Positions 55,389 through 59,597 of a stretch of 64,000 bases of DNA are shown one piece after another. Made by a program: the position numbers and the translations under genes. Positions within the stretch are counted from its first letter, which is position 1. Each line of letters opens with the position of its first letter. Source of the stretch: Escherichia coli (GTDB taxonomy: Bacteria; Pseudomonadota; Gammaproteobacteria; Enterobacterales; Enterobacteriaceae); assembly GCF_050320075.1 (NCBI RefSeq), contig NZ_CP190018.1; one strand, 5' to 3'. The notes under the pieces were generated by a model. The model had not been told where the DNA came from. It saw only the letters and a list, made by a program, of their open reading frames with translations, and made no database searches.

Positions 55389-57794
55389 GTGGATATGGCA
55401 GCAGTAAAAATCTCAGGTGTGCTGAAAGATGGTGCGGGAAAACCAATACAGAACTGCACTATTCAACTGAAGGCAAAGCGTAACAGCACCACGGTACTGG
55501 TGAACACGGTGGCCTCTGAAAATCCGGATGAAGCCGGGCGTTACAGCATGGATGTTGAGTATGGCCAGTACAGCGTCACCCTGCTGGTTGAAGGTTTTCC
55601 GCCTTCGCATGCCGGGAGCATTACCGTCTATGAAGGTTCCAGACCAGGTACGCTGAATGATTTTCTCGGTGCCATGACGGAAGAGGATGTCATGCCGGAG
55701 GCATTGCGCCGTTTTGAGGAAATGGTGGAAGAAGCGGCACGCAACGCCGAAGCCGCCTCTCAGAGCGCAGCGGCGGCAAAGAAATCCGAAACGGCTGCGG
55801 CATCATCGAAGAACGCGGCGAAAACCTCAGAAACGAATGCAGCTAATAGTGCACAGGCGGCAGCGACCTCAAAGACTGCATCGGCAAACTCCGCGACAGC
55901 AGCCAAAAAATCAGAAACCAACGCGAAAAATAGCGAGACAGCCGCAAAGACGAGCGAAACCAACGCAAAGTCCAGCCAGACGGCAGCGAAAACCAGCGAA
56001 ACGAATGCCAAAGCCAGTGAAACTGCGGCAAAAAACAGCCAGGTTGCAGCAGCCCAAAGCGAGAGCGCGGCAGCCGGTTCTGCGACTTCAGCAGCTGGAT
56101 CAGCAACTGCTGCGGCTAACAGCCAGAAAGCTGCGAAGACGAGTGAAACTAACGCAAAGTCCAGCCAGACGGCAGCGAAGACCAGCGAAACGAATGCCAA
56201 AGCCAGCGAAACTGCGGCGAAAAACAGCCAGGTTGCAGCAGCCCAAAGCGAGAGCGCGGCAGCTGGTTCTGCAAGCGCGGCGGCTGCTTCTGCCACTGCA
56301 TCAGCCAACAGTCAAAAAGCGGCAAAAACCAGTGAAACCAATGCAAAGACAAGCGAGACTGCAGCGGCGAACTCGGCGAAAGCATCGGCAGCAAGCCAGA
56401 CAGCAGCTAAAGCAAGTGAAGACGCAGCCAGAGAGTATGCAAGTCAGGCAGCAGAGCCGTATAAATATGTCTTACAGCCACTGCCTGATGTGTGGATACC
56501 GTTTAACGATTCACTGGATATGATTACGGGCTTTTCGCCGTCATATAAAAAAATTGTTATTGGTGATGATGAAATAACGATGCCTGGCGACAAGGTTGTT
56601 AAGTTTAAACGCGCATCAACTGCCACATATATCAATAAATCAGGCGTATTTAGTGTTGCTAAAATTGATGAGCCACGATTTGAAAAAGAAGGTTTATTGA
56701 TTGAAGGACAGCGCACTAACTATTTTGTTAAATCCAATACTCCCGCTGAATGGACGAGTACCAGCAATATCGATAAAACTAATAATGGTGTTGATGAATT
56801 TGGTTTTTCATATGCCAAAATGCGAACAAAAGATAATATGACAGGACAATCATCTGCACTTAGTCTGCATACATGCAGTGCATCCCGGGGGATTGATGTT
56901 AGTGGCGATAATAAGTATTGCACTGTTTCATGCAGGGTTAAAGCTCCTGATGGTCTTCGTTGTCGTTTGCGTTTTGAAAAATACGATGGGTCGGTTTATA
57001 CATTTTTAGGAGATGCTTATTTAACTTTCGGAACTCTGATAATAGAAAAAACTGGCGGAGCAGCCAATAGAATAGCAGCTACTGCAACTAAAGATCCGGT
57101 TACAGGGTGGATTTTCTATGAGGCAACTATAGAAGCTGTTGAAGGTGAAGCCTTAATTGGCGCAATGATTCAGTATGCGCCGAAAAAAGGTGGTATAACT
57201 GAAGCGGGAGATTATATTTACCTTGCAACACCACAATTTGAAAACGGCGGATGTGCTTCATCTTTTGTTATTACGACAACTGCACCCGCAACCCGCTCCA
57301 GTGATATGGTGACGATCCCAACTGAAAATAATATCTATAATAGACCGCTTACGTGTCTTGTCGAGGTCAATAGAAATTGGGGCGATATTCCTCCTAATGT
57401 AGCACCGCGTATTTTTGATTTTTCTGGTGTGCCACCTATTGAGTCAATTACATACGCTTTTAACACAACTGAGAAATATTACGGTCAGCTTTATATACAA
57501 ACTTATAAAGCGTTGACAAGTACTTACGTTTCTAGTGTGTTTGCTGGTCGAACTGATGTTCGAAAATTCATTGGTGGTTTTAATATTTATTCTGATGGTA
57601 CTAAACGAGTAGTTTCTAACGGTGAGGCTACTAAAACTATGAAAACGGAGTGGACGGGCGTAAAAACACGGACCTTTATTCGAATTGGAGGTCAAGCCAC
57701 ATCGGGAACTCGTCATCTATTCGGCCATTTGAGAAATCTTCGTCTCTGGCATAAAGAATTAACTGATGCGCAAATGGGGGAGAGTATTAAATGA
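55389..57794 (+). CDS. stf: Side tail fibre (Stf) with lambda-like N-terminal half and AT-rich divergent C-terminal half
   Basis: 801 aa; N-terminal ~430 aa lambda Stf-like including duplicated Ala/Ser/Thr-rich repeat; GC drops after ~56480. Confidence 0.8.
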   Translation: MDMAAVKISGVLKDGAGKPIQNCTIQLKAKRNSTTVLVNTVASENPDEAGRYSMDVEYGQYSVTLLVEGFPPSHAGSITVYEGSRPGTLNDFLGAMTEEDVMPEALRRFEEMVEEAARNAEAASQSAAAAKKSETAAASSKNAAKTSETNAANSAQAAATSKTASANSATAAKKSETNAKNSETAAKTSETNAKSSQTAAKTSETNAKASETAAKNSQVAAAQSESAAAGSATSAAGSATAAANSQKAAKTSETNAKSSQTAAKTSETNAKASETAAKNSQVAAAQSESAAAGSASAAAASATASANSQKAAKTSETNAKTSETAAANSAKASAASQTAAKASEDAAREYASQAAEPYKYVLQPLPDVWIPFNDSLDMITGFSPSYKKIVIGDDEITMPGDKVVKFKRASTATYINKSGVFSVAKIDEPRFEKEGLLIEGQRTNYFVKSNTPAEWTSTSNIDKTNNGVDEFGFSYAKMRTKDNMTGQSSALSLHTCSASRGIDVSGDNKYCTVSCRVKAPDGLRCRLRFEKYDGSVYTFLGDAYLTFGTLIIEKTGGAANRIAATATKDPVTGWIFYEATIEAVEGEALIGAMIQYAPKKGGITEAGDYIYLATPQFENGGCASSFVITTTAPATRSSDMVTIPTENNIYNRPLTCLVEVNRNWGDIPPNVAPRIFDFSGVPPIESITYAFNTTEKYYGQLYIQTYKALTSTYVSSVFAGRTDVRKFIGGFNIYSDGTKRVVSNGEATKTMKTEWTGVKTRTFIRIGGQATSGTRHLFGHLRNLRLWHKELTDAQMGESIK

Positions 57795-58072
57795 AAGATT
57801 TAACACTCAAATTTGCAGACAGGGCCGACTTTTCGGCCTTTATGGAGAGCATTGGCTATTATGATGACGAGTCGATGCAGGATGATATTCTTATTGACGT
57901 GATAGGTAATGTGTACAAAGAAACCGGAGAACTGACTGAAGATGGCGAACCGGTATGTGTTAAGGAAGACGGATATTTTGTAAACGTGCGCATCATTAAT
58001 GATTCGCAAATATCGTCAATATTCGATGAATACGTGGTTGCTGTTGAGCATCAACTTCGTGGCTGGATGTGA
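57791..58072 (+). CDS. Hypothetical small acidic protein downstream of stf
   Basis: 93-aa ORF overlapping stf stop (ATGA). Confidence 0.4.
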   Translation: MKDLTLKFADRADFSAFMESIGYYDDESMQDDILIDVIGNVYKETGELTEDGEPVCVKEDGYFVNVRIINDSQISSIFDEYVVAVEHQLRGWM

Positions 58073-58081
58073 GGAAGAAAA

Positions 58082-59122
58082 ATGGCTACATCGACAGTAA
58101 TTCCTGATGACATCAAAACGCTAAAATCCGACGTTAGCAAATTAAAAAACGATCAAGGAAGCTACGCAACAAAATTATATGTAGACAGCAAAGATGAAAT
58201 CGTTGGTGACTGGTCTGTTTCATGGTATCAGCAGGTATTGCCAACTAGCGGAGCTATATTTGGGAGAAAACTCCGCTCAACTCACAGGACGGCAGGTGTT
58301 GAGGATGCGTATTGCGAACTATACCTCAAAAAATGGATAGACAGTCCAGGTAACGCAATGGCGCGCCTTAACCTGAACGATAACGGGACAAACATTTGCT
58401 GGGACTTTACCAACCTTTATGGCGGTACGATGATTTTTCCCGGTGACAGCGGATACCTCAAAATGGGTAACTGCCTTATGTCATACAGCAAGCGTGGAAG
58501 TAACGCGCTTATTAAATTTGATTACACCGACACATTACAGATCAAATATGCCAATCATGGGTCAACCATGACATTAAACACACAGGGAACCGCTTATGCT
58601 GGTGTTACTGCTCAATTGTGGGGCAACTCCAGCCGTCCTGTTGTTTATGAAGTCGGTGTTGATGGTGGCGCTTATATGTTCTATGCGCAGAAAAATACCG
58701 ATAACACCTATATGTTAAGCGTTAATGGTGCATGTCATGCCACCGCATTTAACCAGCATTCCGACCGGGATCTGAAAGACAACATTCAGGTGATCGATAA
58801 TGCAACCGACCGCATCCGTAAAATGAACGGCTATACATACACGCTTAAAGAAAACGGTATGCCCTATGCTGGTGTCATTGCACAGGAAGCTCTGGAAGCA
58901 ATCCCAGAAGTTGTAGGTTCCGCAATGAAATATCAGGACGGTGCGAGCGGATCGGAAGGTGAAGAAGGTGAACGTTATTACACAGTAGATTATTCTGGTG
59001 TTACTGGCTTGCTTGTTCAGGTAGCCAGAGAGTCAGACGACAGAATAACAGCACTGGAAGAAGAAAACGCAGAATTAAGACAAAGATTATCTGCAATTGA
59101 TGCGGCGCTTGCGTCTAAATAA
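58082..59122 (+). CDS. Tail fibre/spike-like protein with C-terminal intramolecular chaperone auto-cleavage domain
   Basis: 346 aa; C-terminal SDRDLKDNI...GYTYTLKENG...GVIAQE...YYTVDYSGVTGLLV pattern typical of peptidase S74 fibre chaperone domains (recollection). Confidence 0.55.
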   Translation: MATSTVIPDDIKTLKSDVSKLKNDQGSYATKLYVDSKDEIVGDWSVSWYQQVLPTSGAIFGRKLRSTHRTAGVEDAYCELYLKKWIDSPGNAMARLNLNDNGTNICWDFTNLYGGTMIFPGDSGYLKMGNCLMSYSKRGSNALIKFDYTDTLQIKYANHGSTMTLNTQGTAYAGVTAQLWGNSSRPVVYEVGVDGGAYMFYAQKNTDNTYMLSVNGACHATAFNQHSDRDLKDNIQVIDNATDRIRKMNGYTYTLKENGMPYAGVIAQEALEAIPEVVGSAMKYQDGASGSEGEEGERYYTVDYSGVTGLLVQVARESDDRITALEEENAELRQRLSAIDAALASK

Positions 59123-59149
59123 TATTAAGGGGCCGAGCGCCCCGTTTTA

Positions 59150-59458
59150 TTGGGTAGGATGAAAATGGATATAACACCTTTCCTTCATGCGCTTTGTGCT
59201 GTGGCTGCGCAGCTACTGATTGGTCTTTTTACCGGGAACTGGGCTTACGGGGCGATAGCCGGTTGTACGTTCTTCATTGCGCGTGAACACACCCAGGCAG
59301 AATATCGCTGGATCGAAATGTTCGGGCATGGCAAGCGAATGAATATGCCGTGGTGGGGCGGTTTTGATCCACGCGCGTGGGATGTGGCAAGCCTGATGGA
59401 TTTTGCTGTGCCGGTGGTGGCGTGTCTGCTGGTCTGGCTGTTGGTTAATCGTGGGTGA
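59150..59458 (+). CDS. Hypothetical membrane protein
   Basis: 102 aa with two hydrophobic segments. Confidence 0.4.
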
Positions 59459-59471
59459 AAAAAGGTGGGCT

Positions 59472-59597
59472 GTATATGCAACGGAGGAAGAAACCACGTT
59501 GCTGGAAGCCTGGAAGAAGTATCGGGTGTTGCTGAACCGTGTTAATACAACAACTGCACCGGATATTGAATGGCCAACAGTACCCATTATCGAATAG
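59472..59597 (+). pseudogene. tfa: 3' remnant of tail fibre assembly gene tfa
   Basis: Encodes ...[39 protein letters not shown], matching the C-terminus of lambda Tfa as I recall; no matching 5' part upstream. Confidence 0.6.

Follow-up and report, generated by a model that had tools for sequence, protein, structure and literature searches.

The side-fibre locus of phage lambda (Ur-lambda) displays the gene order J-lom-stf, with a PF08400 attachment domain and an Ala-rich shaft in Stf, and is completed by tfa. Tfa proteins combine a variable N-terminal domain, which binds the fibre, with a conserved C-terminal domain for trimerisation (PMC9608196, citing North 2019). In phages 21 and Lambda_2E9 (Jouyvirus), the locus comprises stf, a 92-aa ORF, a gene for a 97-aa membrane protein, a truncated tfa and sitDCBA. 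Small siphoviruses may build their lateral fibres from a single protein or from two or more (PMC8594841), and branched ones made of two proteins were reported for the T5-like phage DT57C (PMC4728585, PMC10713586). In DT57C and DT571/2 (Golomidova 2016; Ayala 2023), the fibres carry S74 self-cleaving chaperones, recognise O-antigens and recombine in a modular way; LtfA and LtfB are encoded by adjacent genes, the first of which provides the attachment domain, and LtfB, which lacks one, is thought to be docked on LtfA by its short conserved N-terminus. A C-terminal S74 domain with a Ser-x4-Lys dyad and a coiled coil after it also occurs in K1F endosialidase and T5 pb1.

The locus described here shares with lambda the J-lom-stf order, the attachment domain, the Ala-rich shaft and the last 120 nt of tfa (88% identity), but orf-314 and Tfa residues 1-155 are missing; a lectin-fold tip, a 93-aa ORF (orf93), a short S74 fibre (orf346) and a membrane-protein gene (orf97) occur instead. 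With phage 21 and Lambda_2E9 it has in common a conserved junction box in stf, the ConA-type tip, an orf92/93 homologue (52-54% aa identity), orf97 (96% aa identity) and the joint between orf97 and tfa. In short, the Stf tip and its helper gene were swapped for a low-GC receptor-binding cassette, and the last 40 codons of tfa are both a scar and a recombination site.

Prophage setting

The locus was found in the window, i.e. the whole stretch of 64,000 nt from Escherichia coli contig NZ_CP190018.1 that was analysed, inside a 47.9-kb lambdoid prophage (13715-61656) located at serU. A 62-nt direct repeat without mismatch, at 13715-13776 and at 61595-61656, marks its ends and corresponds to the 3' part of tRNA-Ser(cga); these att repeats are intact and the late region is full-size. 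Features lie on the plus strand unless stated otherwise. The four ORFs stf, orf93, orf346 and orf97 are intact, and each displayed a full-length match to a PHROG family. All elements listed in a preliminary description of the locus were recovered, either exactly where it had placed them or a few bases away. A second fragment of the lambda b-region was seen at 61263-61359, and a capsid-protein fragment is annotated nearby in RefSeq.

A lambda-type stf with a new tip

The stf ORF (55389-57794) encodes 801 aa from a GTG, or 799 aa from the RefSeq start (ATG 55395). Its 5' part (55395-56474) codes for a lambda-type virion-attachment domain followed by an Ala/Ser-rich repeat shaft. Residues 5-134 matched phage_tail_N (PF08400; Pfam, E=4.1e-66), which identifies a prophage tail-fibre attachment domain, and the N-terminal part matched the lambda tail fibre chain 9e7m_Ta in the PDB (E=3.1e-48). 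Identity to lambda reached 83.5% at the nucleotide level (55203-55747) and 58% at the protein level (residues 2-305 of orf-401), so that the lambda-like N-terminal half proposed earlier was borne out.

The same was true of the divergent C-terminal half. No match to lambda orf-314, the C-terminal half of Stf, was obtained in 55300-59800 (tblastn, E<=10), and Stf displayed a ConA-like lectin fold instead of a lambda/T4 gp37-like, Tfa-requiring C-terminal half. The region encoded by the 3' half of stf (56475-57794) is all-beta, with a beta-sandwich jelly-roll that can be superimposed on known modules for carbohydrate binding (ConA-like lectin/glucanase fold) and a hypervariable section at residues ~660-750. 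Residues 437-637 also matched GTA_spike_fiber (NF048003; NCBIfam, 57.3 bits against a cut-off of 36 bits). This half is presumably a carbohydrate-binding receptor domain. Residues ~445-763 were unlike those of phage Tritos and the flanks were 93-97% identical, indicating that the locus is internally mosaic.

The two parts of stf meet at the junction box (56475-56723; residues ~362-445, beginning QPLPDVWIPFNDSL), where homology to fibres of Nonagvirus, T5-like and T1-like phages and phage 21 begins. By this homology, the box anchors the cassette on its left side.

The low-GC cassette and its relatives

GC content fell from 0.56-0.59 to 0.37-0.39 across 56300-56750 (300-nt windows), and cross-family nucleotide homology set in sharply at 56475-56480, both in agreement with the GC drop noted previously after ~56480. 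Values were 0.548 for the stf 5' part (55395-56474), 0.418 for the cassette (56475-59125), 0.517 for orf97 together with the tfa remnant and 0.52 for the prophage backbone. The contrast is partly due to the Ala-rich (GCN codon) stf shaft.

A three-gene unit, composed of a fibre gene, orf92/93 and a second fibre gene whose product starts with M[AV]T.T[VI]IP.DI..LK, was encountered in the lambdoid phages Tritos, PhiR49_1 and IdasGreatGrand as well as in Nonagvirus ESCO3 and JenP1, Tequintavirus Es2 and Drexlerviridae swan01. The Tritos cassette was 94.5% identical to that of the virulent Nonagvirus ESCO3 over 2,564 nt in one block; for the window, identity to ESCO3 was 90.8% over 57676-59058, and homology stopped at 59058. 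The block starting at 56475 is a horizontally exchanged receptor-binding cassette common to virulent phages of the Nonagvirus, T5-like and T1-like groups. Judged by GC alone (0.44 in ESCO3 and 0.39 in T5-like Es2 at the sampled loci, 0.52 in the prophage backbone), it may have passed from virulent-type DNA to lambdoid phages. The swapped module had been thought to extend up to tfa; the low-GC block is real, but its right edge lies at ~59058-59125, before orf97 and not at tfa.

The 93-aa ORF reported after stf was confirmed as orf93 (57791-58072; phrog_1361). Its product is acidic (21 D/E, 7 K/R), and its start overlaps the stf stop codon as ATGA, by which the two genes are translationally coupled. 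An ORF of this family was invariably present downstream of this fibre type. A role as allele-specific chaperone was rejected since orf93 is conserved across differing Stf tip alleles and showed no co-variation with them: it was 97% identical between the window and Tritos, where the Stf C-half was only 57% identical, and its homologues in Lambda_2E9 and phage 21 were 93% identical, with 46% for the Stf C-half. The product may rather be an assembly factor or connector.

A short second fibre

The third gene, orf346 (58082-59122), codes for 346 aa composed of an N-terminal motif (MATSTVIPDDIKTLK, a putative docking peptide), a variable middle part and a C-terminal Peptidase_S74 domain. The auto-cleavage chaperone domain attributed to this protein was retrieved by formal search above the gathering score (residues 227-278; Pfam, E=4.8e-14, 52.8 bits against a 22-bit cut-off). 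The Ser227/Lys232 dyad (SDRDLK) was at least 90% conserved in 30 homologues within a nearly invariant S74 core, and the S-x4-K spacing recurred in variant third genes. The chaperone is predicted to cut itself off at Ser227 after folding. As in K1F endosialidase and T5 pb1, a coiled coil follows the dyad, but the mature part of orf346 would be very short (226 aa) and displayed no recognised catalytic domain; neither did Pfam, NCBIfam and PDB searches reveal a virion-attachment domain.

Like orf346 itself, its counterparts (224-581 aa) sit directly 3' of the fibre-orf93 pair in every case and lack phage_tail_N or any other known virion-attachment domain; only the N-terminal motif of ~20 aa is common to four phage groups with otherwise unrelated tails. 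Two adjacent fibre genes with an attachment domain on the first only (PF08400 in Stf) correspond to the gene arrangement of a branched fibre. By its sequence conservation, the N-terminal peptide may dock orf346 on Stf or on orf93, and, by analogy with DT57C, docking could yield a two-receptor, possibly branched fibre, of which both Stf and orf346 may bind surface glycans. Both DT57C fibres end in S74, whereas the first fibre of the window has no S74 and terminates in a lectin fold, and an orf93-like gene does not figure in the sections of the LtfA/LtfB literature at hand; the three-gene unit of the window is also that of the T5-like phage Es2.

We tentatively suggest that the trio of fibre, orf93 and short fibre could form a portable dual-receptor side-fibre module, in which the ~20-aa peptide of the S74 fibre would plug into the lectin-fold Stf end with orf93 as connector or assembly factor. 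The result would be a branched fibre in lambdoid phages. The module would travel among E. coli siphophages, both temperate and virulent, and the junction box and tfa remnant might have been retained because of the exchange that they allow. The second fibre is optional, since the third gene is absent from phage 21 and Lambda_2E9.

It is rather unlikely that orf346 acts apart from Stf, as an independent tail-tip fibre or spike or as a soluble depolymerase-like protein, the three genes being adjacent only by the clustering of fibre genes. Loci of the phage 21 type work without orf346, orf93 fails to follow Stf alleles, and the orf346 monomer structure model was poor (pLDDT 59.8) and hence uninformative. 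Yet, the counterparts display no attachment domain and keep both the ~20-aa motif and a fixed position in four phage groups, and the same reasoning identified LtfB as a branch on LtfA in DT57C.

orf97 and the tfa remnant

Directly after orf346, a GC-rich hairpin followed by a T run (59129-59143) forms a terminator-like element on the right-hand border of the low-GC cassette. Next comes orf97 (59165-59458 from the annotated ATG; phrog_1443, GC ~0.52), coding for a membrane protein of 97 aa with hydrophobic stretches at either end. The 102-aa membrane protein mentioned previously is the same ORF read from TTG 59150 (59150-59458). Among lambdoid and P22-like phages, orf97 is an accessory gene of the moron-like kind; it is separate from the low-GC cassette.

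The tfa remnant (59478-59597) covers codons 156-194 plus the stop codon, i.e. no more than a portion of the conserved, helical C-terminal domain, and was 82.5% (aa) and 88.3% (nt) identical to the corresponding part of lambda tfa. It matched positions 95-130 of the 131-position Caudo_TAP profile (PF02413; Pfam) and is annotated as an incomplete pseudogene in RefSeq. A full-length tfa, with fibre-binding N-terminal and C-terminal domains, was sought upstream, and no further lambda Tfa homology was detected (tblastn, E<=10); the estimate that only the last ~40 codons (59472-59597) are left was thus accurate to within a few bases. In comparison with the Tfa family (Mu, P2, lambda; Caudo_TAP), only the conserved C-terminal end is represented, and the remnant is not a functional member because it has lost most of the protein, the variable fibre-binding N-terminus included. 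It is a non-coding relic and a patch for homologous recombination.

The orf97-tfa joint was base-for-base alike in five phages or prophages (the window, phage 21, Lambda_2E9, Tritos and PhiR49_1) and was present in 1,744 of 5,426 complete E. coli genomes. This joint, linking orf97 to tfa codon ~155, is non-homologous. Since it is identical in phage 21, Tritos and these 1,744 genomes, the truncation is probably old and arose once, and the joint was therefore not created by the swap in this lineage. The right ends of the remnant vary: in phage 21 and Lambda_2E9, it retains only 57 nt of tfa homology (59478-59534), with the sit operon next to it rather than a cyclase gene, and an A at 59511 replaces the conserved Trp in the EAWKKYR motif by Arg. 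In IdasGreatGrand the remnant is wholly absent.

Recombination through the tfa 3' end

To the right, the prophage carries a MASE4-GGDEF diguanylate cyclase gene as cargo (59671-61002, minus strand, GC 0.30), which forms the right arm and fits the published description of DgcX (PMC4287979). In a related strain, it is annotated as frameshifted (RefSeq). In other prophages, this gene is linked to an intact tfa. In strain 14EC007, an intact 194-aa tfa precedes the same cyclase gene, with 98.9% identity to the window over 59478-61355, and its 3' end was identical to 59520-59597 at 78 of 78 positions, which supports recombination through the tfa 3' end. The left 42 nt of the remnant displayed four differences to the 14EC007 allele and two to those of Tritos or PhiR49_1, informative sites being few in this section. 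By this comparison, the remnant appears to be itself mosaic, sharing its left joint with Tritos-type loci and its right part with 14EC007. Other carriers of the remnant displayed different tfa 3' alleles and different right flanks (sitDCBA, pinR, lambda-like DNA), and laboratory crosses between lambda and Rac recombined inside tfa (PMC3945230). The tfa 3' end as a crossover site was thus supported. The preliminary proposal of a module swap through this end stands for the recombinant nature of the locus and the site of crossover; the truncation joint itself is older and non-homologous.

A locus with probably four histories

We consider it likely that the locus consists of four pieces of different history, assembled through loss of the helper and reassortment. 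The lambda-type stf 5' part fixes the fibre to the tail and builds the Ala-rich shaft; a horizontally mobile cassette of ~2.6 kb (56475 to ~59060-59125) codes for the lectin-fold tip, orf93 and orf346; orf97, with its backbone GC, is typical of lambdoid and P22-like phages; the last piece is the final 120 nt of an ancestral tfa. The fibre-binding N-terminal domain of Tfa would have been lost in a single old non-homologous deletion. With a lectin-type beta-sandwich as the tip and a second fibre that brings its own chaperone, Tfa would no longer be needed.

Decay of the fibre region in a cryptic prophage, with the fibre genes as non-functional leftovers and the tfa fragment as one deletion among several, is very improbable. 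The truncated tfa, the b-region and capsid-protein fragments and the cyclase frameshift in the related strain would fit such erosion; they are set against the four intact ORFs with full-length PHROG matches, the intact att repeats and the full-size late region. Moreover, the four genes and the remnant occur in the sequenced phage genomes Tritos, HannyBb, PhiR63_1 and 2G7b, some with a recorded E. coli host, classical phage 21 keeps the same arrangement minus the third gene, and virulent phages, which have to make use of it, carry the cassette at 90-94% identity.

That the remnant is a working mini-gene, whose ~40-64-aa peptide with the conserved Tfa C-terminal helices still aids fibre trimerisation, can practically be dismissed: its frame is open from 59403, its differences to lambda tfa are of coding type (6, 0 and 9 at codon positions 1, 2 and 3) with all seven amino-acid changes conservative, and short PHROGs families end in the same motif (phrog_2341, 3792 and 5572), but the only in-frame starts (TTG 59403, GTG 59451) lie inside orf97 without a convincing ribosome-binding site, RefSeq calls it a pseudogene, the fibre-binding domain is missing, it is cut and mutated in phage 21 and Lambda_2E9 and gone in IdasGreatGrand, and the coding-like divergence is explained if both alleles were still intact when they diverged and conversion by intact tfa genes came later.

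The reading as four pieces leaves the remnant a role at the DNA level. It would still pair with the intact tfa of other prophages because it is located in the conserved Tfa C-terminal domain, and, together with the junction box, it would allow the host-range module and the cargo to its right, in this prophage the dgcX-like gene, to be reassorted by homologous recombination. The locus is an ordinary but clear case of phage tail-fibre shuffling in a lambda-like E. coli prophage.

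Organization of the tail-fibre locus

The locus forms the right end of the late operon, after J (51184-54663) and lom (54731-55330), of a 47.9-kb lambdoid prophage in the E. coli chromosome. A direct repeat of 62 nt, perfect in both copies (13715-13776 and 61595-61656) and corresponding to the 3' part of tRNA-Ser(cga), delimits this prophage, and zinT and msrQ come after the prophage. A preliminary description had presented the locus as a recombinant cassette acquired by a host-range module swap through the conserved tfa 3' end, and all the elements that it listed were found in place. 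The locus is already annotated in RefSeq, where the tfa pseudogene is marked, and it is also found in sequenced phages.

The side tail fibre gene stf (55389/55395-57794) encodes 801 or 799 aa depending on the start codon. As had been described, its N-terminal half was lambda-like: it displayed the PF08400 attachment domain (E=4e-66), the product matched the tail-fibre chain of the solved lambda tail (9e7m, E=3e-48), nucleotide identity with lambda was 83.5% over 55203-55747, and amino acid identity with orf-401, the first of the two lambda stf halves, was 58% across residues 2-305. The divergence of the C-terminal half was equally apparent, since nothing in it matched orf-314, the other lambda stf half, and the sharp GC drop was located between 55395-56474 (0.548) and 56475-59125 (0.418).

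A tandem duplication of 189 nt (63 aa; 55890-56267), with copies 85% identical, was observed in the Ala/Ser-rich Stf shaft. It accounts for a length of about 800 aa against 735-736 aa in most close homologues and is a natural change of fibre length.

A low-GC cassette common to temperate and virulent phages

Alignments with Nonagvirus ESCO3, Tequintavirus Es2 and phage 21 showed that homology to unrelated phage families begins abruptly at 56475-56480 (Stf aa ~362, the 'QPLPDVWIPFNDSL' box). The temperate phage Tritos and the virulent ESCO3 have a single block of 2,564 nt in common, 94.5% identical and equal to 56475-59058 of the window, which itself was 90.8% identical to ESCO3 over 57676-59058. 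With a GC content of 0.42, the cassette resembles the ESCO3 (0.44) and Es2 (0.39) loci, not the prophage backbone (0.52), which suggests that it originated in the virulent-phage pool. The cassette is also a mosaic itself: identity with Tritos was 93% up to 56722, no nucleotide alignment was obtained for 56723-57675, and identity was 97% from there to 59579. Along Stf, a conserved box (aa 360-430) was followed by a moderately divergent part (430-660), a hypervariable one (~660-750, 13-36% identity) and a conserved tail (750-799). Residues 437-637 matched the GTA head-spike-fibre domain (NCBIfam) and a weak Laminin_G_3 match was recorded near the C-terminus (Pfam); glycan binding by the Stf tip is the natural prediction.

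The 93-aa acidic ORF (orf93) was confirmed at 57791-58072, overlapping the stf stop codon. Only 227 homologues were recorded, nearly all from Escherichia and all unnamed, giving an alignment of insufficient depth for structure prediction, and searches of Pfam (to E=10), NCBIfam, PADLOC and PDB sequences returned nothing meaningful. The gene was always there, even where the third gene was missing (phage 21 and Lambda_2E9). A role as allele-specific chaperone of the Stf tip was considered and rejected since, between loci, orf93 identity does not track that of the Stf C-terminal half; we infer a general assembly factor or connector.

The third gene, orf346 (58082-59122), encodes the 346-aa protein for which a chaperone domain had been proposed, and formal search indeed assigned Peptidase_S74 to aa 227-278 (52.8 bits for a cut-off of 22 bits). 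The Ser227/Lys232 dyad (SDRDLK) of the S74 core is near-invariant and the coiled coil is C-terminal; predicted cleavage would yield a mature protein of 226 aa. The monomer model was poor (pLDDT 59.8), as one would expect of an interdigitated trimer, and was left out of fold searches. Only the first ~20-30 residues (MATSTVIPDDIKTLK...) were common to other proteins encoded at the same position, namely an alternative S74 protein of PhiR49_1 and IdasGreatGrand (234 aa), the fibre of T5-like Es2 (581 aa), and proteins of T1-like swan01 (224 aa) and JenP1 (351 aa). Gene order was constant across the loci compared: fibre, 92/93-aa acidic protein, MATSTVIPDDIKTLK-type gene. A parallel argument has been made for the branched fibres LtfA/LtfB of DT57C: the second fibre has no domain for attachment to the virion and is proposed to dock through its short, conserved N-terminus (PMC4728585, PMC10713586). 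According to the BASEL study, the number of proteins in a lateral fibre of a small siphovirus can be one, two or more (PMC8594841). The fibre-orf93-short-fibre unit may form a two-receptor fibre.

The membrane-protein gene orf97

The membrane-protein ORF was confirmed at 59150/59165-59458. Its GC content (0.52) is that of the backbone, a terminator-like hairpin (59129-59143) precedes it, and it was missing from the Nonagvirus, T5-like and T1-like loci compared; these features set orf97 apart from the cassette. That hairpin was the only site noted in a promoter and terminator scan, whose predictions were no more numerous than in shuffled sequence. Homologues come after the fibre genes in phage 21 and many lambdoid phages, and one is located after the tailspike gene and just before int in the P22-like phage Gally (4001-4288, 80% amino acid identity). 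This position suggests a putative moron, e.g. an exclusion or envelope factor. Neither a family nor a defence model was matched in Pfam (to E=10), NCBIfam, PADLOC or PDB sequence searches.

More distant relatives adjoin tail-fibre genes in Aeromonas phages and in Halomonas phage(s) (phiHAP-1). Genes of this type thus recur beside tailspike or tail-fibre genes across distant hosts.

Truncation of tfa and probable recombination through its 3' end

Only the 3' end of tfa was left, as had been claimed: 59478-59597 corresponds to residues 156-194 and the stop codon of lambda Tfa (82.5% amino acid and 88.3% nucleotide identity), and a tblastn search with lambda Tfa (E<=10) detected no further similarity upstream of 59478. 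The joint at which the orf97 stop codon meets tfa codon ~155 was base-for-base equal in phage 21, Lambda_2E9, Tritos, PhiR49_1 and the window, and a 161-nt probe spanning it was covered over at least 80% in 1,744 of 5,426 complete E. coli genomes, a BL21 derivative among them. As the left side of the joint is without homology, the truncation is best attributed to a single, old, non-homologous event.

Compared with lambda tfa, the remnant displayed 6, 0 and 9 differences at codon positions 1, 2 and 3, respectively. Such a pattern looks like the parting of once-functional alleles and not like decay, and it is no argument for current function. A small gene was dismissed for want of a credible start codon; moreover, the phage 21 copy is truncated and has its conserved Trp replaced by Arg.

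Right ends of the remnant were diverse. In phage 21 and Lambda_2E9 it stops at 59534 and sitDCBA comes next, while the Tritos copy diverges at 59579 before pinR. It is complete both in PhiR49_1, with lambda-like DNA downstream, and in the window, where a MASE4-GGDEF cyclase gene follows; IdasGreatGrand has no remnant. The same cyclase gene directly follows an intact 194-aa tfa in strains 14EC007 and TUM1881, in a prophage beside the bio operon, and the window was 98.9% identical to 14EC007 over 59478-61355. Within the remnant, 59520-59597 was identical to 14EC007 at 78 of 78 positions, against five or more mismatches to the remnants of Tritos and PhiR49_1, whereas over 59478-59519 four sites separate the window from 14EC007 and two separate it from the other remnants. 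The simplest reading of these alignments is that a crossover at ~59519-59544, inside the remnant, brought a fibre locus with the remnant together with a tfa-cyclase right arm. It fits previous results, since in crosses of lambda with Rac one third of the recombinants had their crossover inside tfa (PMC3945230) and Tfa is modular, with the C-terminal domain as its conserved part (PMC9608196).

In Tritos (L002), a pinR-type serine invertase gene is located on the opposite strand (7737-8327), directly after the remnant. The same arrangement is found downstream of tfaR in Rac, so that the fibre cassette has also become joined to a right arm bearing an invertase. Exchange driven by an invertase was set aside, since the tail-fibre locus of the window has no invertase gene, no invertible segment was noticed, and a Rac-type right arm is the better explanation of the pinR flank of Tritos.

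The module swap through the tfa 3' end is therefore supported, with refinements: the cassette proper stops near 59.06-59.13 kb, orf97 is separate from it, and the truncation is ancient and widespread.

The right arm

The diguanylate cyclase gene (59671-61002, minus strand, GC 0.30) is intact, encodes 443 aa and lies between the remnant and attR. It agrees with what has been published on DgcX, a cyclase expressed at a high level and carried along by lambdoid prophages (PMC4287979); its carrier here is a serU prophage and not one at lambda attB. The 1.8-kb cyclase region was covered over at least 80% in 766 of the 5,426 genomes.

Between the convergent remnant and cyclase gene, a near-perfect palindrome (CTGCAGGATATTAT-ATGGG-ATAATATTCTGCAG; 59611-59640) precedes a T-rich run and is identical in the tfa-cyclase arm of 14EC007; it is possibly a bidirectional terminator. 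Closer to attR, a stretch of ~97 nt (61263-61359) has a counterpart of 88.8% identity in the lambda b region, located between ea47 and ea31 (lambda 24162-24259). This isolated patch, where RefSeq records a 72-nt 'capsid protein' pseudogene fragment, was also found in Tritos, is widespread among E. coli genomes and may be another small homology island.

Significance

Mosaic tail-fibre loci exchanging through conserved patches are already well established and current concepts are unchanged. Less described is the fibre-orf93-short-fibre unit that lambdoid phages have in common with those of the Nonagvirus, T5-like and T1-like groups. As a natural case of lambdoid host-range reprogramming, the locus is clean and well delimited: the receptor-binding cassette, which virulent phages of these three groups use as well, is bracketed by a conserved stf box and a 120-nt tfa scar. 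Its natural fusion points and chaperone-independent fibre tip are of use for engineering lambda-based delivery particles, and the locus for predicting prophage host range. Nucleotide identities of 90-94% show that genes have recently passed between temperate and virulent coliphages. As the right arm is linked to a biofilm-promoting cyclase gene of the dgcX type, prophage cargo is reshuffled by tail-fibre recombination too.
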